Assembly: GCF_006345805.1 (NCBI RefSeq)
Contig: NC_043014.1
Coordinates: 53,072,001 to 53,136,000, forward strand
Reading direction: 5' to 3'
From: Octopus sinensis
Taxonomy: Eukaryota
Length of the DNA stretch: 64,000 nt
This document shows, piece by piece, positions 46 through 63,619 of this stretch. The stretch's first letter is position 1. Each line of letters starts with the position of its first letter. The notes below the pieces were generated by a model, which saw only the letters and a program-made list of their open reading frames with translations, had not been told where the DNA came from and made no database searches. The translations under genes and the position numbers were made by a program.

Positions 46-3000
46 ATGTGGCTGTGTGTGCGTTGTCCCCACCACTGCTGGGCAACCAGTGTTGGTTTGC
101 TTACATCCTTATAACTTAGCAGTTTCACAAAGAAGAACAACAGACTAAGTACGAAACTTAAGTCCTGGGGTTGAGTTGACTCAACCCTTGAAGGCATTGC
201 TCCAGTATGACCGCAATCCAATGATGACTGAAACAACTAAACGATTATTCTCAAAACCATGTGGTATGTTTCACGAGAAACATGGTAAAGGATGGATTTG
301 GGTGAAAGAAGGAGTGTAGCACACACACACACACACCCGTCCCTTGAAGGGTGTGGTCCGCATCAGAAATTTCGTTTGCCAGAAACGGCAGAAAGTCGAG
401 TAGAAGCCTTTGAGGTGTTCAGTTACATCTTAAAGTTCAAATTTCACTCAACAAAGGGAGTTAATCCATTTCGCTGAGATGGATTAACTCTTTGCATCAC
501 AGACGTGGGGGGGGGCAGCGTATTCACAGACGGGTTCGTTACCCACACTTTCTACTTTAAAGGGATCCCAATAAAAACCCTTCATTATCTCTTCCAAATA
601 TCATCTTAATGATAAATTTATTTCACCAATTTTTTCTTTATTTTTGAAATTAACGAAAGCACAGGCCACACAATTCAGTTGTATTCACCAAAGTAGCGGT
701 CGAAGGGCTGGACAGCGATCGGCCCCAACGTCCAACACCACAATGTCCCCTTTTACTAGAAACTTAAACCCAATGGCTCAGTTATGAGGACAGAAACTGA
801 CCGTGGTGGTCAAGCAGGCTGGCAACCGATCTGATCTCACACACACACAATGTTGCTTCAGCCAATTATTAATAAAAACACCCAGAAGACATTTCTTTTA
901 TGTTTTTCTTTGTTTGCCTCACCATGCGTGTGTGGAGAGAGAGAGAGAGAGACACACACACAGACAGGCATAGAAACACACCTGACAGGCTTCCAGTTTC
1001 TTTCTATTTACCAAATTCACTCCCAAGGGATTGGTTTCACCCAGGGTCCATACATTAGAACACACTTGCCCAAAGAGCTGTGCAGGACTGAACCCAAAAC
1101 CAGATTATTGCAAAGCAAACTTCTTAACCACACACCCACACAATTATTTGAATTTCTGGGGGTTTTTTTAAAGACATGTCTGAAAAGAGTGTTTTCTCTG
1201 GGCCCCTTCCATCTCCTGATATTAGCAAAACACCTCCCAACACCACTGCTACTATGACTAGAGAAACTGGTTCTGTCAGCAAAACCAAAACATTTTGAGA
1301 GTGAAATCTGGTTTTTGTTTGAATATGTATTTTTGACATCCACCTCCGTAAAAAACAATCCACCCTCACAATAATTAACTAACTGTAGAAAAACCAACTA
1401 CTTGGGGGGGGGGGGGGAGTGCATTAATAAAACACTTTACACAAACCAAATAAGAAACATGACTCAATAAGTTTAGTCTCGATGTGGCTACTTAGAGCTA
1501 GAAACAGCAGCCAAACCTCTCAAATCACACCAACTATCTAAAATTCCAAGCAGGACACACTGTACTCTCGTATAGAGCCACTAAAAACAAGAGGGTCTTC
1601 AATGATACACATCTCTGCTTGATCAACACCAACTTGAGGTCCCTTAAAAATAGGCAGGGCACAACAATGGCAAAAAATAATGCCTCTGAGATTAAGTTTC
1701 CTCTGTCAGGTTCCAACTATATTTCCAGCCTGAGAGTTCTTGAGACTCATTCTTTCACAGACGTCCCCCCCACACACCCACCCTCAATTCTTTTGATTTC
1801 ACAAAGTAGCATAATCCAAAGGACCACACCCTAACCTTTGGCTCCATTTTATTCATCAAGAGACTCTCTACAGGCTGCCTCAGCCTGCTAGAAATAGCAG
1901 GTTATCACTTCTGATCAGCCTCACACTGCTTCTACAAACCTCTTTGTTTAATGTGATCTAAACTTAAATCTTCCATCAAAATTTCATTCCAAGTTATGAT
2001 TCCGAGTACAAAATTGTTTTACTGAATTTTTCATTAATCTCCAAATTAATTAACAGAAAACAGAATTTCACCAGAAATATAGAAATGAAAGGATAAGAAC
2101 TCCCTCAAATCAGTCACTCTACCATCTTATAGAAAAGGAGTCCCTGCATAGACAAAGCGGAAAATGGTTAGTCTAAATGTGTTTGAATATTAGGGTCCGT
2201 TCACACAGGGCTGACATGGCAGCTACTAACAGACTATTAGTGGGGGAGGGGGGTGAAGTATAACAAAGCTTCATAGAGAGGGCAGGAGGTTAGAAATGGG
2301 AGGAGGCAGAGAAAGTTAGAAAACGGAGGGAAGGGGAGGAGATAAAATCTTTCTACTCAATGTCTTCTATAAGTCCAAGATAAAAATGTCTTCCATTAGT
2401 CTAAGAAAATTCTATTTGCATAATTTATTCAAACAATTATACATATGTAATGTTAGATTAATAACTGCTTTAGCACAGATCCACACAAAACTTAATTGTA
2501 CAAACACAGGAGGCACAAGCAAATATGAAATCTATTGGAAGCTAAAGACTTCAGCCATCAACGAGAAATACGAGGAAGTGGTGGGAAAATGGCTAAAATA
2601 GCTGTTAGTCTTTATGTACAAGAGAAGGAGTTTAGCCCCAGTTCAGCCCAGGTCTAATAAACTGCTGACCAAAGGCATTCCACCCATGAGCATCCTGCCT
2701 TTCTCCTTCCTATGTAAGGCATTTCTAGTGATTGCGAAAGAGGTTCCTTCATTGACTCAACAATTCAGTTCCTGGTTTATTCAGAGTCCAGAGTCAAGAC
2801 TAAACAAAAACTCATCACTGAGAGTCTCGTTAGAGGCAAATGTAATGAGTAACATGAAGATGAAGTTGAAGCCAAGAGGGTCCAATTCTGTAGAATATCA
2901 GAACCAAAAGACAAATCTCCCTACACACACACACACACACACACTTGACCAAACTGTTGCCATGGTCACACATGATAAAAGGCTTACTCTACAAAAAAGC

Positions 3001-6000
3001 TCTGAAACATGTAAATATAATTCAGTCGTCCATCCATGATTGTTCAGCATGCTAGCAATAGCAACTAAATCTCCTCCGAACCATAGATGTCTGAGGGACA
3101 TCCATCATGTTATCCTATATCCGTTGTCCAAAAGAAAGAAAAAAACATACACCACCCTACCCCATGCCAGTAAGGAAGGCAGATGTTAAACGATGATGAT
3201 GACAAGAAATGTTTTTTTTGATCAGAGAGAATGTGTAGGAGGAGTGATGCCAGAACTACAGATTGGTGCCACCCTCACTGTTTCCACGTGATTCTCTTTC
3301 TTTTGACTGAAATTTTGGCAGAAACACATTTTCAAAGGCAAAGATGTTGAAAAGATTTAGAAAAAACTTCCAATCTTCTTAGCTTTGGTTCATTCTCCCC
3401 CCAGGCTGTCCCCAACTTCTTTTACTTTAGAATTCTTCTGATTCATATATTTGAAATATCAGCATTATGTAATCTATTCCTTCAAAAGTGTCTTTCTGCA
3501 AGATATCATTTAGAAATGTGTTTTAAAAGACAGTTTATGAGGAAGCGAAATTCAGAAGAGTGAGAATGATCCGAAATTACAAAAGGAAGAGATTTTAATT
3601 TTAGCATAATCATAATCTACATCCTCAAAAACATGGATTTGCATTTTTCAGACAGTTATGAGGAAACAGTGTAAGTCAGTGGGGCACTAAACTGTAGTTA
3701 TACCCCCACTGCTTGGTGAGACTTTTCAAACTAAATTGAATCAGTTGTTGCTGTTTGATCCCAACCCGGATGAAAAGAATTCCTGCCATGACCATCCTGT
3801 CTTTTTCTTACATGCAGATGAACAAAAGACATTATCCAATATATCATTTTTGTTTGTAGAGGTCATAATTTGACTGCTATTTCTAGTAAACAGAGAGACT
3901 ACGTAGAGGCTCCACGAAGAGGGGAAGGAACATGGCTGAGAAGGATTGTTTAAACCTAATCAAAGCGTTCTAGCAATGACCATCCCCACTAAGCCAACCT
4001 TATCCAAATTGCATTCTTCTGTAGAAAGATGACATGATTAGAGATGAAATTTAACTGCATTTTCTAGCAGGTCAGATGACTGCATAGAGGAAACTCAATC
4101 AGTTCAAGTCAGAGGCAGATCCATAATTGGAAGGCATTTTAACCATGACCATCCCTGTCAGTTTTGCAGGAATAGTGGAGCCAGGACTACATTGTTTTTA
4201 AAGGGTGCTGAGGGTGATATGGAGATTTGGCTGTTATTTCATGCAAGTCAAACAACCACAGCGAAAAATGTTCTTGGGAGAAAGCTTTATTGGATTGGCG
4301 AAAATATCAGAGGAATCAGGAGAGGAAAGCAAGTGTGAGAGAGAGAGAGAGAGAGAGAGAATGTAAGTAATGAGAGGGGTGAGGTAAGAGGATGTGGGTT
4401 GAAGGATGAGAGCTGGAGTGGATGGTAGAGGGAGGAGGAGGAGGAAGCAAAGAGTCTGAAAAAGGATTTACAAGCTGCTGGTTATGAATGGATTGTGGAA
4501 GTTGAAGAAAGGGTCAGATCGGAAGGTAAACTAGGGGCCAGTTTAGAGTGGGGAGAGGAAGCAGGCAGTGGAGGGATTATAGCAACAACTATTCAGAGGT
4601 CCCAGGTGAATATTGATGGGAGAGAGAGAGAAAGAAGAAGACATGTTCACCATCTTCTTTCAAAAGGGATCAAATGCTTTTCCAGTTATTGAAATCTGCT
4701 TTTCAGAATAGGAAGGATGAGGTTTGGTTGTTATTTTTAGCATTTGAGTGGCTGTTTCGAAGCTCTGCTTCTTCTGGCATCAAACCAAATGAAGGAGACG
4801 CTGTGGTCGTTCAACATGCTAGAAGTAGCAACTAAATCTCTCCCAAATCACACCCAATCTCATACTGAATGGTATGTTGAACAGGAAACAAAAGGGTGCA
4901 TCCTAAGTCATTTAGGAACAAAGAAACGGTGGGGTGTGAGGGCCTTATAGATAAAGCAGCTGAAACCACAGGGATGAGCCTTCCCTATCCACCCAACTGC
5001 TTTTAATCAGAACTTTCTGAAAATGCCTATTAAATAAATTTTTTACAGATTTCAGAATATGAAAAAAAAAAAACTGAGCAAAGTCAAAGCATGTGAATTA
5101 TAAGAACCTGCCCACTTCCAAAGACCCCTCTCACCCACACAAGCTTAAATGCATTTCCAGAAATTTCATTAAAAATATGCATTTTTCACAAAGTCAAAGT
5201 GTGGGAGACTAACTCTGCAGTTTAACTAAAGGGCATAACTACAGTTTCGTGCCCATCACCACACCCTATTTACCAGAAACTTTCTTTAAAATACATATTT
5301 TTTAATGAAATTTTCCAGAGATATTTTGGATGGGGTACATTATGAATGGGAGGGGGTGAAATAAAAGACTTTAAATAATTTCTCCCCCTCCCTTCTCAAG
5401 GAGAATTTTGATAAATACGTAATTCTTCAGAAAATTTTTTTTAAATACGTTTTTGATAATGCAGAATAATTCTTTTTTCAAATTTTATCAAAAATATAAT
5501 TGTATTCTACATCTTTAGAAACGTATCTTGGAGAAAATTTTCTATTAAAAAAATATTAATTTGAAGTTTGATGAGATGAGGTGGGGATGAAAATGACCCC
5601 GAAAAAGAACAAAATTGATGTTGCCACACCCCACCACTGCAATCTCCATTATTGAAAATATATTTGAAAAAAATTTTCAAAAGAATATATTAATGTTACA
5701 AGCAAACAAAATCGGTGCGGGGTACATTTCTATAGCTTTGTTTGGAAGAAACTAGGAAAAAGTTAAAACAAGAGATGCTGTAAGCCAATTATTTTAATCC
5801 CAACTTCTGTTTCAATACGAGACTACACCAACTTAATTATATTTAAATCTTTAAAAATCCTAATTACTAAAACAAGAATTGACAAATGTCATAATTATTT
5901 TTTAAGCGTCAGAAACGAGTTTCTTTCTCCGTGGTTATTCGAAAAGCAAACAAAAGCAACTAAATTTCGCCCTAAATTTGTTGGCAAATCGTTATTACAA

Positions 6001-8007: not shown

Positions 8008-8192
8008 TTTCTACAGGCACAAGGCCTGAAATTTGGGGGAGGGGGGCAGTCGAGTAGATCGACCCCAGTACGCAGCTGGTACTTAATTTATTGACCCCGA
8101 AAGGATGAAAGGCAAAGCCGACCTCGGAGGAATTTGAACTCAGAACGTAAGGGCAGACGAAATAGGGCTACGCATTTCGCCCGGCCGCCTTA
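8008..8192 (-). mobile_element. tRNA-derived SINE, family A
   Basis: Shares CGACCTCGG.GGAATTTGAACTCAGAACGTA (B-box-like GAGTTCAAATTC on minus) with copies at 26.9, 31.7, 33.3, 33.5 and 60.0 kb. Confidence 0.8.
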
Positions 8193-10007
8193 CAACAACA
8201 AAGACAATAATAGATGGTCAGAGCAAGAGTATCTTCAGTTATAAACGTCCTGTCTACATCTAAGCAGTTAGTTAAAGCGCCGAAATGTTGGGGATTTAGT
8301 TGCGTCCCTTTCTATTCAAAGTTCAAATCCCACCGACGGAGAAGGGTCAACAGACATTCCCCCAGGGTCGTTGAAATCGATTTTATAATATTCTTATATC
8401 ATCGCAAATGTAAATGGAATTCTAACAGGAAAAAAAACAATAAAACTCGGCCAGACAACGAAGTAAGGAGCTTAGTCGGTGACATTCGAAACCAAAACCT
8501 TAGATATAACACCAACAACAAACAGGGTTTAAGGCCGTGGCTGGGATTCATTTATTTATCTATTCTCTTTCGTTGTTTCCTCGCAATTGGAAAGGAGGGG
8601 CTAATTCCCTTTCCAGTAATGTCCTGCTGACTTCCTTACATTCTTAAACGGTAGAAAAAAGGCAATATTTGAAGCTGTGAGTCTTCAAAGACGAGAGATG
8701 AGAGACACCAGTCATCAGCCTTCTCGTGTCAAAATAAATTAACAACAGTCTATATCTACAATCTATTAAAATTATTCTGCTCTGGTTCTGCACTATTAAT
8801 TCCACAGAATGTGTGAAATCGCTGACAAAAAAACCCAGAGTCAGAACTGCCTCTACCTGGTCGGTCCAAATGCTGGAAATGGTAGCAAAATCTTTCAAAA
8901 ATTACAAGAACAAATTACAAAATATATAAAAGGATATTTAGATAATGTAGCCCGAAACTGTCTGAGAAAAAAAAACAGGATGGTCTCGACTAGAACGCCT
9001 AATCGTGTGTGCGTGTAGAAAGGAAAGAATTGTGTGTGTGAAAGTGGAATTGACAAAATCGGAGCAGAGAGGATTAAAAGCCATCTCGACTAAACAATTG
9101 TTTAGTAAATATTTCGGGGCCCAGAACGAAGATCCGCTGTCTCTTTAATTACAATGTAAATTACTACAATTTACTTTAATTACAATATATATATATATAT
9201 ATATAACTATCAAATCCTTCCTTTAAAGCTGTCGACAAAGTTGTCCTCTCTCAATTCCCTCAACAATTCTGTCGCATCCTTCCTTCCTTGCTTTCTCTCT
9301 CTTCTTCCGAAGGTTACTTCAATTTCTTTTCTTTTATCATTTTCACACAATCTCTTACTATTTTACGTTGAAAAACAAAACGAAAAGAAAAACATTCATT
9401 ATTTCATAAGATCGAACTTCCTTTCCGTTTAATACTAGTGTGTGTGTGTGTGTGTGTGATACAGCTTTATTCACTGGCCATCATCATCATCATCATCATC
9501 AAGTGTCTCTTTACAGTTTATGAGTGAAAGCTGAAGGCAGGAGGGAACGTAAGTAAGTAAAGGTTGTAGGCAGAGGTTGTTACTTGAACCATTTTCAGGA
9601 GAGAGGGTGTTGGAGGAGGAGGAGGAGGAGAGAAAGAAGCGGGGGGGGGGGTCGGCTTTCAGAAGCAGCTGCAATCAATGACTCACTCGTGTCACTCCCA
9701 CTTCCAGCCCGGTCTGCTCTCACTAACCACCACCACCATCATCATTAGAATCATGTGAAACGGAGGAGCATCGGTGGAGGCGGCGGAGGTGGAGATTAAA
9801 CGGTTTAAAGAATATGACAAACGGTTTGCTCCAGAGGTCAACGATCAAAGGCATTCCAGCCATGACCATCGTCAGACTGCACACACACACACACACACTG
9901 AAAGAGGCTTGAGTGAGATTTAACTGCCATTTATAACAATTCCAGACTCCCTAATTTAATATAAGCTGTTTAACCACAGGTCAGTTCCAAACAGGCACAA
10001 CTACCTA

Positions 10008-26879: not shown

Positions 26880-27106
26880 ATAATCCTTTCTACTATAGGC
26901 ACAAGGCCTCAAAACTTGTGGGGGGGGGGGGGGGTCAGTCGATTAGATCGACCCCTGTACACAACTGGTACTTAATTTATCGACCCCGAAAGGATGAAAA
27001 GCAAAGTCGACCTCGGCAGAATTTGAACTCAGAACGTAGCGGCAGACGAAATACCGCTAAGCATTTCGCCCGGCGTGCTAACGTTTCTGCCAGCTCGCAG
27101 CCTTAA
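26880..27106 (-). mobile_element. tRNA-derived SINE, family A (full length)
   Basis: Complete head to tail match to the other family A copies, flanked by TAA repeats. Confidence 0.9.
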
Positions 27107-28742
27107 TAATACGGCAACAATGACTCTCCCTAGACACAGCAGAGTATCTAAACATATTTCAAATACGAGGAACCCTCTGCAGGGCACCTCGACCTGCTAC
27201 ACATAACAACCAGATTTCTTTAAACAAGTTTTAAAATGGCGACACAAGACGCATATTTTAGACTAATGTATATTTAAGGCAACACAGGAATCCATTTTTG
27301 GTGACCTGACCCCCTAGAAAAAGCAAATAAATCTCCCTCAGCTAATAAATTGCTGTGAAAAGAAAGAAAAATTAAACGGACGGCATAGCTGTGTGGTTGA
27401 GAAGCTCGAATGGCTAGAAATAGCAACCAAGAAACAACCGTTCATAGTTTTAAGAGGACAGACTGCAGGAGAAATCTCTCGATCGCAAATCCACTTGGAT
27501 CAGAGCTGACAGCGTGGAAGGCACTTATCCTGTAGATAAGAGGGCGCAATGAGGGAGGTTTGATTGCTATATCTAGTAGGTGAGTGGCGGGGTTCGAGGG
27601 CGACCGTCTGGTTGGTTGGAGGCGAGAAGTTGTGGGGTCAAAGGTGTGTTGAGGACAGAAGGCGCAAGAGGTGTTAGCGGAATGATGGAAGGGGTAAAAC
27701 AAATGGAAAGGAAAAAAAAAGAAACGTGAAAATGTCCCATTAACAACATCAGCTCACATTCCAGAAACTATCCTAAACACATTCCATAAATTTAAAAATT
27801 CACCAAGCTGCCGTCACCGCCGCCACCCGGTCATTAACATTACTTACAGTTAACGGTTGTCATCAGCCACCACCAGAGCTGATAAATGTAGGTCGACAAG
27901 AGGACCGAAGAGAAGGACAGATAGACATGTTTTAGCTTACAGGACGAGAGGAAGGGGAGGCAGTCAGATATCACCTCCGCCGCTGCCGCCACCCGCAAAC
28001 TGTCAAGTATTGTCTATGAAAGTGAAATACAATCCCAACTGGAGATGGGCCGCCGCAGTTGATACAAGTTCAGAAAGTGAAACCTATGTAATGTAGAGGC
28101 AATCTTTCGAATTATGCACATATAATGGCGCACAACAAAATGAGAGAAGGCCAAGATATTGTCAAACTATGGAATAACCTAAAAAGATATTTTGGCGACA
28201 CGTTTTCGGTACAGCTGATTCGAAGCTGACTTATTTGACATTAGATTTTTAATCTTTCTCTCTCTCTGTTTAGGTCTATGAGCAGATTCATGTATGAGGA
28301 GAAGGGAAAGTGTTTCTATCAATTGCGTTCAATTAATAAATTGAAAAGTCTTCACCTCCCTCTGTGTATGTGGGGGGGGGGTGCGCGCACGTGTGAGCAT
28401 GTTTCCCTCCAGTGCCAAAAAGTACCATCTCCAAACCATGATGAATGTCCAGTCAGCCGCAATGCCAAATCACTAGCGTCCATTCGCATCCTCTCTTAGA
28501 ATTTTGTTTGGAAAAATGATGCCAGGTTAAAAACTCTTGCCGGAATGAAAGAATGAAATTCCAAGCCATTTTGCTATATTTTGGTTAAAATTCCATCTTT
28601 CTATTGCGTTCCTATCTAACGCCCTGCTGGCCCTGCTGTCCCGTTGCTATCCACGAAATCAGTACTGGTTTACTGTGTAATGATTGGCCAGTTTCCCTTT
28701 CACTTCACTGTCTCTTATTATATGTACATAGAACGAAAGAGC

Positions 28743-33164: not shown

Positions 33165-33662
33165 ATTCGGCGGAATTTGAACTCAGAACGTAACGACAGA
33201 TGAAATACCTATTTCTTTAATACCCACAAGGGGCTAAACACAGAGAGGGCAAACAAGGACAAAGGGATTAAGTCGATTATATCGACCCCAGTGCGTAACT
33301 GGTACTTATTTAATTGACCCCGAAAGGATGAGAGGCAAAGTCGACCTCGGCGGAATTTGAACTCAGAACGTAACGGCAGACGAAATACGGCTACGCATTT
33401 CGCCAGGGGCGCTAACGTTTCTGTCAGATCGCCGCCTTAATAACAATCCTTTCTACTTAAGGCGCAAGGTCTGAAATTTTGGGGGAGAGAACTAGTCGAT
33501 TACATCGACCCCAATATCCAACTGGTACTCTTTTTATCGACCCCCGAAAAGATGAAAGGCCAAGTCAACCTCGACGGTATTTGAACTCAGAACATGTAAG
33601 TGGAAAAAATGCCGCTAAGCATTTTACCCGCGTGCTAACGATTCCGCCAACTCGCCGCCTTA
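33165..33662 (-). mobile_element. Cluster of family A SINEs (two near-full copies plus a fragment)
   Basis: TTTGAACTCAGAAC occurs three times, near 33178, 33357 and 33582. Confidence 0.85.
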
Positions 33663-56264: not shown

Positions 56265-57535
56265 CATGTAACGGCTTTTATTTTGTTTTTGCCTTTGTTG
56301 TGATGCCATTCCCGACGACCCCCGGCAAGAAATAGACTGGACCGAACGATTATAAAGAGTAGCGGTCGGAGTGAAGTTTGATGGGTCAGTGGGAGGTGAG
56401 TAGAGCGTGGTGTGTTCAATCCTTGTGATTCCGTGGAAATAAGTGGTGTTATTATATATTATCGAAGGTCTCCCCGCCTGGGTGAACCTGGATTTGTTGA
56501 ATTTTGAATTTTTGCTTGTTTTTGTAATTGTTTTCTTCCCCATTTATGGGTGAAGTAGAGAAGAGAGGTGAGAGATCGATCAGGAGCCGGCCGCCAGTTA
56601 CGCATCAGCTACAGCAAAAGGTTTGAATACCAACACCCGGAAGTGCGAGAGATTAAGATTGAGCCAAAAAAACCCCCAAAAAGTGGAAAGAGTGTTGTAA
56701 ATTGATAGAAAGGGAAGGAGCCAGTTTGAGTTTGGCCCCACTGGAGGAATTGACTAACAATGTGGCGAAGAAATACACACGAGGAAGGAAGTATGGCTCG
56801 GTGGAGGTTAGGTTCGCGAACGAAGAGGAGGCCATAAACCACTCCACTGTGCCGATGGGGACACAGGAATGGGTCCTTCTGTCCGACTAACTGTGGCAAA
56901 CGTGTTGCCAGAGTAAGAATTGGTAGAATATCCCCCGAGATTAAGGAAGCATGGCTGGTGGCAGCGGTCATGGACAGGATGGAAGACGAAGCGAGAATAT
57001 TGAAAATTACGAGAACTAAAAAGGTTAATTGGTGGTTGGGGGGGGGGGTATGGCCTTGAGATGGCAAAACAAGTAAGACTCAAAGACTTGCACGAGATCA
57101 CAGAGGAGATTGTTCTGTTGGGGTAGGGGTGAGAGTGGTGGTGGAAGGCAGACCCCCAACATATTTCTTATGCCGACAAAAGGGACACATGAAAGCAAGG
57201 TGGCCCCAGAAAGAAGACAAGGAGGAGGAGCAGGAGCAACAGTGTGAGGAAAGAACTGCCGAGGTGGCGGTGCCGGAAGGAGAGAAGGACAAAGATGAAC
57301 CCCTGTGGAGGAAAAGGAAAGAGCGTGTGAGCTCTCCACCAGAGAGTCAGAAAAGGATGAAGGGGTCAGAGAAGGAGGGGAAAAGGAGCTGGTTAGATGC
57401 AGCAGCAGCAGCAGCATCAACAATAGAATGTAACGTGGAGGCGGTGGACGTTGAGGACTTTGATAGTATACCAGCGGGGGTGGGGAGCCGGGAGGAGTGA
57501 CTTGCTCGGACGGCCCGGGTCCGTCGCTGAAGCAA
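56265..57535 (+). mobile_element. 5' UTR and decayed ORF1 of an L1/Tx1-like retrotransposon
   Basis: Frameshifted ORF with VEVRFANEEEA (RRM-like), GKRVARVRIGRISPEI, and VVVEGRPPT(Y)FLCRQKGHMKAR(W)P (decayed CX2CX4HX4C knuckle). Confidence 0.75.
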
Positions 57536-59704: not shown

Positions 59705-60135
59705 GGACGGCGAACTGGCAGAATCGCCGGACAAAATGGCTAAGCTGCATTTCGTCCGTCTTTACGTTCCAAGTTCAAAATTTTGCCGAGGTCGACTTTG
59801 CCTTTCACCCTTTCAGGATTGATAAATTAAGTACCAGTCAAATACAGGGGTCGATGTCCCCACCTCCCCCGAAATTGCTGGCCTTGTGCCATAATTTGAA
59901 ACCAACATAATAATAATAATGCTTTCTATTATAGGCACAAGACCTGGAATTTTGAGGGAGGGGACCAGTCGATTACATCGACTCCAGAGTTTCACTGGTA
60001 CTTAATTTATCGACCCCGAGAGGATGAAAGAGAAAATCGGCCTCGGCGGAATTTGAACTCAGAACATCAAAGCGGACGAAATGCCGCGAAGCATTTTGCC
60101 TGGCGTGCTAACGATTCTGCCAGTTCACCGCCTTC
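59705..60135. mobile_element. Inverted pair of family A SINEs
   Basis: Plus copy ~59705-59905 and minus copy ~59922-60135, separated by a short (TAA)n. Confidence 0.85.
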
Positions 60136-60735
60136 CAGTATATAATAATGATGGTGATGATGATGATGATGATGATGATGATTTCTAGCATCGATACGGG
60201 CCATAGATTTAGGAGAACAACATTTGGACGGTTGAGAAGTGTGAGAAGTAAAAGTCACAGACACAACAAAAACGAAAATGCATTATCCTGTTTTTCATTT
60301 GCTTTCTCCTGATGCCTCCAATATCCAGACGGTGCTCACAGAGGCCCCGACAGTCTGAGCAAGACGTCTAATTGCAACCCCGGCACGAAGCAAATCTGCA
60401 ATGCGTTGTCTCTTGGCTTCTTAAGTGGACATGTCAGATCGTATGACTGGAACTTCTCATTAAATTAACTCTAGAAACCTGAAATAGAAAACAATATTTT
60501 AGGAATCTATGAAAAATAAGGCTTCGAAAATATTCCAGTTTTGCTTCCCCACCCTGAGCATATATATATATAGAGAGAGAGAGGCAGAAAGAGACGAACA
60601 GACAAGACAGAAAAACAGGAAGGCAGGGAGAAAGAAAGAGGAAGAGACAGACAGGCAGACAGACAGACAGACAGGCAGATAGATAGGTAGGTAGGTATGT
60701 AGGTAGGTAGGTAGGTAGGTAGGTAGGTAGGTAGG

Positions 60736-60788
<53 letters not shown>

Positions 60789-60821
60789 GGATGGATGGAT
60801 GGATGGATGGATGGATGGATG

Positions 60822-60852
<31 letters not shown>

Positions 60853-60853
<1 letters not shown>

Positions 60854-61010
60854 TGTTTCTTTATTAGCCACACAGGGCTGCACACAGACAGAACAAATTA
60901 CAAGGTAGAGCTTTTCTTTTGAAGGTATTAAAAAAAAAAAAAAAAAGGAAGGGGGAGGTTCGATCAAAAGGGATCGTAAAAGGAGAGAAAGAGGACAAAA
61001 ATAAGGGGGG

Positions 61011-61044
<34 letters not shown>

Positions 61045-61757
61045 GGAGAGGAAAAAAAAAATGATCAATAGGGATCGTTATCACAGAAATGTCAATATGA
61101 AGTGTAAAGGGGAGGACAGGTGAGGTTTACCCGTGGAAAGAAAAGCCTGCGGAAAAGACCACGGTAACCTCGGTCAATGAAGTCACATTTTATATTTCTT
61201 TTTTTTTTTTTTTTTTTTTTTGCAAATAAGCAACTCTCTGTTTTCGATTTCTGGGTTCATAGGACTATGCTCAAGGTGGCTTCGTCATTCATACGTGCCA
61301 TTCTTGCTACATTCACCCATCTTTTTTTAAAACATTCGCTAGACAAAGCTTGCCTCTCTACTCTCACTTTCCTTTTCAAGTGGTACTTGAAGAAGTTGAT
61401 GAGAGATTGACCAGAGAGGAAAGTGTTTGTCTCCAATCCTTTCAGACGCGTCCACCAGATACATTCTTTCGCCATAGCCACAAGGATGATGAAAATAGCT
61501 CTTCCTTCCCGTTTGAAGGAAGGAGGCGTGACAATATTGACGATAGACTCAGCTGATAAACCGACTCGTCCCACACGTGACAGCAGTTGTTCGACATAAG
61601 CCCACAGGTCGGAAATTGTTGGACACTGAACGAGTGCGTGCAGAACGGTTTCGTCGCTCTGACCGCATCTCGGGCAGGTCGGCCCCGTGTTTCTCGAGCC
61701 GTGTCTGTAGAGCTTATCCCGAACGGGTAGCGCTTCTCGGTAGCACTGCCAGGCCAG
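60853..61757 (-). mobile_element. Tx1/L1-like retrotransposon, 5'-truncated copy 1
   Basis: Uninterrupted frame LAWQCYREALPVRDKLYRHG..CPRCGQSDETVLHALVQC..LW...ATLSIVL* (zf-RVT type). The ~400-bp 3' UTR ends AATAAAGAAACAT directly in (ATCT)n. Confidence 0.92.
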
Positions 61758-61782
61758 GATAGATAGATAGATAGATAGATAG

Positions 61783-61813
<31 letters not shown>

Positions 61814-61842
61814 TAGATGGATGGATAGATAGATAGATAGAT

Positions 61843-62334
61843 ATGTTTCTTTGTTAGCCACACAGGGCTGCACACAGATAGAACAAATTACAAGGTAGAG
61901 CTTTTCTTTTGAAGGTATTAAAAAAAAAAAAAAAGAAAAAAAAAAAAAAAGGAAGGGGGAGGTTCGATCAAAAGGGATCGTAAAAGGAGAGAAAGAGGAC
62001 TAAAATAAGGGGGGTTAAAAAAAAAAAAAAAGGGGGGGGGGAAGGAAAAAAAAATGATCAATAGGGATCGTTATCACAGAAATGTCAATATGAAGTGTAA
62101 AGGGGAGGACAGGTGAGGTTTACCCGTGGAAAGAAAAGCCTGCGGAAAAGACCACGGTAACCTCGGTCAATGAAGTCACATTTTATATTTCTTTTTTTTT
62201 TTTTTTTTTTTTGCAAATAAGCAACTCTCTGTTTTCGATTTCTGGGTTCATAGGACTATGCTCAAGGTGGCTTCGTCATTCATACGTGCCATTCTTGCTA
62301 CATTCACCCATCTTTTTTTAAAACATTCGCTAGA
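61843..62334 (-). mobile_element. Tx1/L1-like retrotransposon, 5'-truncated copy 2
   Basis: Nearly identical to the 3' part of copy 1, with the same 3' junction and a shorter truncation. Confidence 0.92.
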
Positions 62335-62426
62335 TAGATAGATAGATAGATAGATATAGATAGATAGATAGATAGATAGATAGATGGATGGATGGATGGA
62401 TGGATGGATGGATGGATGGATGGATG

Positions 62427-62462
<36 letters not shown>

Positions 62463-62508
62463 TAGATAGATAGATAGATGGATAGATAGATAGATAGATG
62501 GATGGATG

Positions 62509-62580
<72 letters not shown>

Positions 62581-62634
62581 TATGGATAGATAGATATAGA
62601 TAGATAGATGGATAGATTGATAGATAGATGGATG

Positions 62635-62694
<60 letters not shown>

Positions 62695-62704
62695 TAGATG
62701 GATG

Positions 62705-62788
<84 letters not shown>

Positions 62789-62865
62789 TAGATAGATAGA
62801 TGGATGGATGGATGATGGATGGATGGATGGATGGATGGATGGATGGATGGATGGATGGATGGATG

Positions 62866-62909
<44 letters not shown>

Positions 62910-62963
62910 TAGATAGATAGATAGATAGATAGATGGATAGATAGATAGATAGATGGATGGATG

Positions 62964-63015
<52 letters not shown>

Positions 63016-63028
63016 TATGGATAGATAG

Positions 63029-63059
<31 letters not shown>

Positions 63060-63074
63060 TGGATGGATAGAAAG

Positions 63075-63143
<69 letters not shown>

Positions 63144-63149
63144 TAGATG

Positions 63150-63217
<68 letters not shown>

Positions 63218-63230
63218 TATGGATAGATAG
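62331..63230. repeat. ~900-bp (GATA)n/(GGAT)n array
   Basis: Directly visible. Related GACA/GGTA/GATA tracts at 60645-60852 and 61758-61842. Confidence 0.98.
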
Positions 63231-63619
63231 AGAAAGAGGTGGGGAAAGAGGTGGAGAGATGAGTGCGAAAAACTGAACTTTGTCGTTGCTCTTGGTGAGA
63301 AGAAAGAGAATTTCCATTTAATTCTGGTTTTTGCGATGAAGATAAACAAATGGCAAGGTCAGACTTTGAATAAAGTTTACTGTTGCCTGTTTCTGTGTTC
63401 AGTGACGCCTGGCTGGGAATGGAACACGGAATCAAACTGGAATTATCGACTGAAGATGACGGAAGTCAAAGAAGGTTCATCGAATTAAGCGCCGCCTTTA
63501 CAAAGAATGTTCTTATCAGGGAATAAATGATTACATTAGATATCAACAGGCGACAATTTAGCTTTGATAATTTATTCCGTAATCCAAGGGACATCGTCGT
63601 TTTTTACGAGAACAAGACT

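Follow-up and report, generated by a model that had tools for sequence, protein, structure and literature searches.

We analysed a 64,000-nt stretch of Octopus sinensis DNA, hereafter the window, in which two copies of one retroelement are arranged head-to-tail within a (TATC/GATA)n array. The locus is laid out as follows, in window coordinates.

60645..60853, no strand: compound microsatellite (AGAC/AGGT/AGAT/GGAT on the plus strand), whose TATC-phase end adjoins the 3' end of copy 1
60854..61757, minus strand: copy 1, 904 nt, 5'-truncated, with the end of ORF2, a ~400-nt 3' UTR, AATAAA and the end GAAACA
61257..61757, minus strand: C-terminal 166 aa of ORF2 (residues 980-1145) and stop codon, with a zf-RVT zinc finger (E 2.2e-7)
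61758..61843, no strand: (GATA)n array between the copies, being the 5' flank of copy 1 and the 3' flank of copy 2
61844..62334, minus strand: copy 2, 491 nt, 5'-truncated, with the last 29 aa of ORF2, the 3' UTR and the private variant AACAAA
62331-62334: microhomology between copy 2 and the array
62335..63231, no strand: long (GATA/GATG)n array, the 5' flank of copy 2

Both copies end in AA(T/C)AAAGAAACA, followed at once by (TATC)n and without poly(A). An earlier note, made from the sequence of the window, had described the two copies as lying in the same orientation and ending in GAAACAT in one (ATCT)n register with no poly(A). This description stood except for its last base: the final T of GAAACAT is in phase with TATC, and we therefore place the boundary of the element after GAAACA. 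The other details of that description were all recovered. The copies are truncated at different 5' points (904 versus 491 nt) and differ by 3 substitutions, AATAAA versus AACAAA being the example given, and by homopolymer length changes across ~490 nt. The 5' junction of copy 2 has 4 nt (TAGA on the plus strand) common to element and array, where copy 1 reads on TAGAC. The ORF2 piece of copy 1 is intact, that is, open over 166 aa, recognized by Pfam as zf-RVT and 99.4% identical to an intact copy.

A possibility was that the family is real but that its two copies in the window did not insert separately, and instead arose by local tandem duplication or through an error of assembly. As a matter of fact, locus L135 has two adjacent copies sharing one truncation point (4793), which is itself a tandem duplication or an assembly artefact, and the numerous 1-bp indels in copies suggest imperfect polishing within repeats. 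In the window, however, the two truncation points differ and each copy has its own repeat junction. Moreover, no private variant is common to the two copies: the two variants of copy 2 were found in 0/78 and 0/71 other copies, and that of copy 1 in 0/80. Stacks of unlike truncations are also common elsewhere (L053, L060, L116, and L117). We regard a duplication or artefact as improbable here, and favour two insertions.

Searching the animal's own genome at the DNA level gave 945 candidates, and the 40 of these that were scored were 96-100% identical; among the 150 matches scored in a protein search, all were 99-100% identical. A full-length copy, whose recovery the earlier note had called for, was obtained. 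It is ~6.1 kb long and comprises a ~220-nt 5' UTR, ORF1, ORF2, and a ~400-nt 3' UTR. ORF2 has 1145 aa with an APE-RT-zinc finger order (Pfam on L102: Exo_endo_phos, E 2.6e-15; RVT_1, 1.1e-30; zf-RVT, 2e-7) and is intact in L101, L102, L105, L107, L111, and L042. ORF1 has 665 aa and is intact in L255, where its translation contains a CX2CX4HX4C knuckle; a Pfam search of ORF1 gave no match. It was broken in 20/20 starts in one set and intact at 1/20 loci in another, and no copy among those examined had both ORFs intact together. Many copies carry 1-bp indels, for which polishing errors are a probable cause.

Exact-pattern counts gave 4,838 exact 3' termini genome-wide, older subfamilies included, and 185 full-length 5' ends. 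Divergence from the reference copy was at most 1.6% for 8 of the first 30 termini on one contig and 2.4-12.2% for the others, which, applied to the total of 4,838, suggests roughly 1,300 young copies. A 200-kb background sample, which is too small for a copy-number estimate, held no copy of the family. Mean pairwise divergence was 0.18% (79 young copies, end of ORF2). Together with the intact ORF2s and the filled/empty polymorphism at the one locus tested (see below), this value bears out the earlier claim of a recently active family.

The family has the architecture of an APE-type non-LTR retrotransposon of the L1 group: ORF2 carries an N-terminal APE, an RT, and a C-terminal zinc finger, and there are a separate ORF1, variable 5' truncation, a fixed 3' end, and a target duplication. 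The best solved-structure matches of ORF2 were human L1 ORF2 and its endonuclease. An ORF1 with a CCHC zinc knuckle is a feature of the Tx1 clade, and the knuckle in ORF1 of L255 is of this type. The closest named protein came from Argonauta hians (69% identity), and the bit score was 224 to an alligator protein automatically named 'transposon TX1' versus about 105 to human L1. In a quick tree of 40 RT pieces, built without curated Tx1 or mammalian L1 rows, the element grouped with the Argonauta protein (100), and together with unnamed relatives it joined the group holding the TX1-named alligator protein with an SH-aLRT of only 89. Thus, the Tx1-like assignment proposed earlier agrees with the architecture and the nearest named relatives, but a tree lacking curated Tx1/L1 references added only that join at 89. 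We consider membership of the Tx1 clade likely but unproven.

We then examined the flanks. Eighty stretches of ~10 kb around element matches yielded 116 aligned chains, 90 of them young, and removal of 2 duplicates from overlapping loci left 88 young copies. These are the top-scoring matches and include the two copies of the window. With at least two TATC units required within 30 nt of the junction, 85/88 young copies had TATC units on their 5' side, versus 0.29% of windows in the background (20 stretches of 10 kb at preset positions). Of the three misses, one had a TACC array, and in two the alignment began within other element sequence. On the 3' side, the flank began with TATC in 83 of the 84 young copies with a readable 3' end. 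Genome-wide, 4,230 of the 4,838 exact 3' termini continued into TATC (87%). Since truncation points are spread over element positions 820 to 5611, no constant part of the element can account for the repeats on the 5' side. Had GATA been an element-encoded tail, most copies would have had non-GATA sequence at the 5' junction; the flank tabulation advocated in the earlier note gave GATA-type 5' flanks for nearly all of the young copies sampled, and its claim of a GATA-targeting family is supported. GATA is a target, not merely a tail. Both the 3' termini (87%) and the 5' junctions (85/88) are well above the >20% of flanks of one sequence type by which PMC4494074, in the part seen, defines target specificity. 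Among 50 truncated junctions with a pure flank, the element continued the repeat phase for 1.08 nt on average, versus 0.31 at random.

Some termini lay off target. In 608 of the 4,838 cases (12.6%) the 3' end did not continue in TATC, 84 having a base other than T and 524 a T but not TATC, and a pattern for non-array 3' flanks, which itself required TAT, gave 495 matches genome-wide. Specificity is therefore strong, not absolute. Such off-target copies would also be expected if insertion were loosely specific and copies in microsatellites merely survived or accumulated there through selection or low recombination, as proposed for Drosophila Waldo-A/B, for which passive accumulation is mentioned in the part seen of PMC3812793. 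Yet register and orientation are fixed in 4,230/4,838 termini, and the copies are only 0.18% apart. Moreover, (TA)n arrays are much commoner in the background, with 178 counts of (TA)10 or more on both strands versus 3 arrays of (TATC)5 or more in 200 kb, yet they make up a minority of flanks. We give passive accumulation hardly any credence, and retain insertion into GATA arrays. Incidentally, sister subfamilies (L042, L068, L069, L108, L120, L126, and L132), ~80-97% identical and ending in GAAACT or GAAAGT, occupy the same arrays; one sister-subfamily copy in L042 ends against (TA)n.

Target duplications were visible where arrays carry variants. An array variant near the 3' junction was repeated at the 5' junction in 8/40 informative copies, whereas a control of 2,000 mismatched pairings gave 0.8 +/- 0.9 such variant-spanning duplications. 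Their lengths were 10-18 nt in five copies and 30-51 nt in three. The duplication was absent in the other 32/40, and therefore the first TATC units on the 3' side could come from the RNA; these data do not establish a duplication of constant length in arrays. Off target, we chose 20 loci by eye among the first 100 of the 495 matches. Six of these 20 were truncated copies with 9-17-nt duplications directly after GAAACA and no TATC added; they are older, 4-14% diverged. Among the others, duplications of 6-7 nt at 2 loci may have arisen by chance, 1 locus failed to align, and the remainder were ambiguous.

One young full-length copy, L252, lies in non-repeat DNA with an 11-nt target duplication. 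Between the duplication and its 5' end there are 20 nt of TATC-like units, and its 3' flank has no tail. Contigs from three sequencing runs (X2, X17, and X18) join positions 1426 and 7529 directly and so represent the empty allele, with a single 11-mer and no TATC run. Contigs of a fourth run, X1, carry both junctions and show the filled site; X1 may be the assembly's own sample, in which case it is not independent, but it is a second data set showing the junctions. The flanks differ from the assembly at 4 of ~1,100 bases in X18 and at 32 in X2. Insertion polymorphism, a check suggested in the earlier note, was thus found at the only locus tested, an off-target site, with one run filled and three empty. 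Runs X1-X18 contained near-identical element sequence (89-96% of sampled words) under eight organism labels; runs X19-X24, with only 0-6% of words, were left out.

The full-length 5' ends differed from the truncated junctions. TC preceded the element in 29 of 30 full-length 5' ends, and TCTC/CTCT irregularities occurred within the last 12 nt in 22/30 of them versus 1/65 truncated junctions (p=6e-14). The four bases immediately preceding the 5' end vary with an internal SNP, reading TCTC in 11/13 of one sublineage versus 3/17 of the other. The bases before the apparent 5' end are therefore inherited with the element. Judging from these junctions, transcription probably begins inside the repeat upstream of the donor and gives the RNA a TATC/TC leader, part of which may be the true first bases of the element. 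For the 20 nt at L252, untemplated addition may be an alternative source. The same 30 ends (L221-L250) include two or more sublineages and, further apart, a group of three (L228, L238, and L244), which suggests several active masters. The 5' junctions of L112, L068, L040, and L123 show short duplicates of the element's first bases interleaved with TATC units, a pattern that repeated template jumps would produce.

The 20 nt of TATC-like units gained by L252 in non-repeat DNA raised the possibility that the element makes its arrays, inserting at short TAT(C) motifs and writing TATC units at both ends by RNA tail and slippage, with later expansion. Pure runs are also longer on the 5' than on the 3' side (median 37 vs 21 nt, p=0.001), and L064 and L130 have (TA)n on both sides with 12-25 TATC units on the 5' side only. 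However, neither added units nor array growth is seen at the six truncated off-target copies, L252 lacks any tail on its 3' side, and the variant-spanning duplications show array sequence that was already present. The longer 5' runs fit one duplication length, to which the 16-nt asymmetry roughly corresponds. We therefore judge it unlikely that the arrays originate in this way, and prefer insertion into pre-existing arrays. Likewise, the off-target copies gave no support to the idea of truncated copies adding long TATC runs to their own 5' ends. A more limited contribution of the full-length copies is conceivable, and we offer it tentatively, as something we would sooner doubt than assert: an active element that seeks GATA arrays and carries a piece of the target on the front of its RNA would, by its full-length insertions, plant or lengthen GATA repeats, making future landing sites and helping to drive the birth of GATA repeats in octopod genomes.

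Collectively, these data make it highly probable that the window holds two copies, both truncated at the 5' end, of a young non-LTR retrotransposon with two ORFs, which likely belongs to the Tx1 clade. Its copies have (TATC/GATA)n on either side; the likely reason is that the element's endonuclease nicks arrays already in place, in a fixed register, and that reverse transcription is primed at the nick. Target-primed reverse transcription is established for this element class. From the junction sequences we infer the nick position, the endonuclease specificity, and the RNA ends. On the GATA strand, the APE domain would make a nick in a single register, either at GATA/GATA or within 1-3 nt of it, and the 3'-OH so exposed would prime near GAAACA at the end of the RNA. 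The cut in the second strand would lie ~9-17 nt away, and the 5' end would be joined via short microhomology or via the leader. Transcription starting inside the donor's upstream array would give a full-length RNA with a TATC/TC leader. Each insertion would leave targets on both sides, allowing later copies to stack, as in the window and at the four stacked loci named above.

Microsatellite targets are known for related elements, namely (TC)n for Kibi and (TTC)n for Koshi in teleosts, and (TTCC)n/(TTTC)n for crocodilian Tx1 families (parts seen of PMC4494074 and PMC3812793). Like our element, these are APE-type non-LTR elements of the L1/Tx1 group with sequence-specific insertion in microsatellites; compared by description rather than by sequence, their repeats are pyrimidine-only, in contrast to (TATC/GATA)n here. 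The junctions we found are in TATC phase and not of the (TC)n or (TTC)n type of the Kibi/Koshi lineage. Waldo (ACAY), Mino (AC), Dong (TAA), and Togen (TG) are also microsatellite-targeting non-LTR elements, but belong to other clades and use other repeat units (parts seen of PMC3812793 and PMC4640811). SART1 and TRAS1, in silkworm telomeric repeats, are likewise APE elements in a fixed register of a tandem repeat; SART1Bm depends on repeats upstream and integrates into the last one of three (PMC7265360, in part), which resembles the copies here with 1-2 units on the 3' side and many on the 5' side. They differ in belonging to the R1 clade, in their telomeric target, and in their poly(A) tail, absent here. 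R2 RNA keeps upstream target sequence (PMC3774820, in part), comparable to the target-derived 5' leader we infer, and microhomology is seen at other 5' junctions in both cases; R2, however, has a restriction-like endonuclease, a ribozyme, an rDNA target, and uniform junctions, unlike the irregular full-length junctions here.

In Octopus vulgaris, 13 recently active L1-Tx1 families have been described, and the parts examined of PMC13282606 mention no target sites for them. GATA/TATC is absent from the microsatellite targets listed (TC, TTC, TTCC/TTTC, AC, ACAY, TAA, TG) in the parts seen of PMC4494074, PMC3812793, and PMC4640811. No report of a GATA-specific non-LTR element was found in the literature searched, Repbase, subscription journals, and the supplements of PMC4494074, which may bear on novelty, lying outside that scope. 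As a landing site, GATA is thus likely new among the site-seeking retrotransposons, themselves a known class, and it would add a tetranucleotide to the targets of microsatellite-specific elements. The family offers more than a thousand copies that are nearly identical, ORF2s that are intact, and one or more polymorphic insertions. How microsatellites are targeted has been called poorly understood (PMC3812793, in part); thousands of junctions and off-target sites that reveal the duplication constitute a natural dataset to address this, and the family also supplies a clonable endonuclease. In these animals, insertions may lie hidden within GATA markers. Should the RNA leader prove real, it would connect retrotransposition with the birth of microsatellites independently of poly(A) decay.

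Truncation points included a hot spot, with 8/65 at element positions 4984-4991 (for example L035, L057, L058, L064, L117, L123, L124, and L127), giving 1.1-kb copies, some of them tandem-stacked. The hot-spot junction pattern had 153 matches genome-wide, at no fewer than 76 distinct places as counted among the first 100, versus 15 matches at 12 places for a control site 50 nt downstream. Because the junctions differ from one another, these copies look like independent events, which a reverse-transcriptase stop or a shorter RNA might explain. A second, motif-based hot spot was considered and dropped: the 10-mer of the main site recurs once in the element, and only 1 genome-wide junction matched there. 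At L229/L255, an inverted element piece precedes a full-length copy, and its breakpoint nearly coincides with the truncation point of copy 1 in the window.

Elsewhere in the window, positions 56783-57500 (plus strand) contain the degenerate remains of an ORF1-like sequence from a related element (tblastn E 3.5e-6 to the family's ORF1), and the reading frame at 57060-57500 includes a zinc-knuckle-like motif. A dispersed 180-nt SINE-like repeat, 77-87% identical to its reference, occurs at 8041-8220, 26930-27109, 33264-33443, and 59960-60139.
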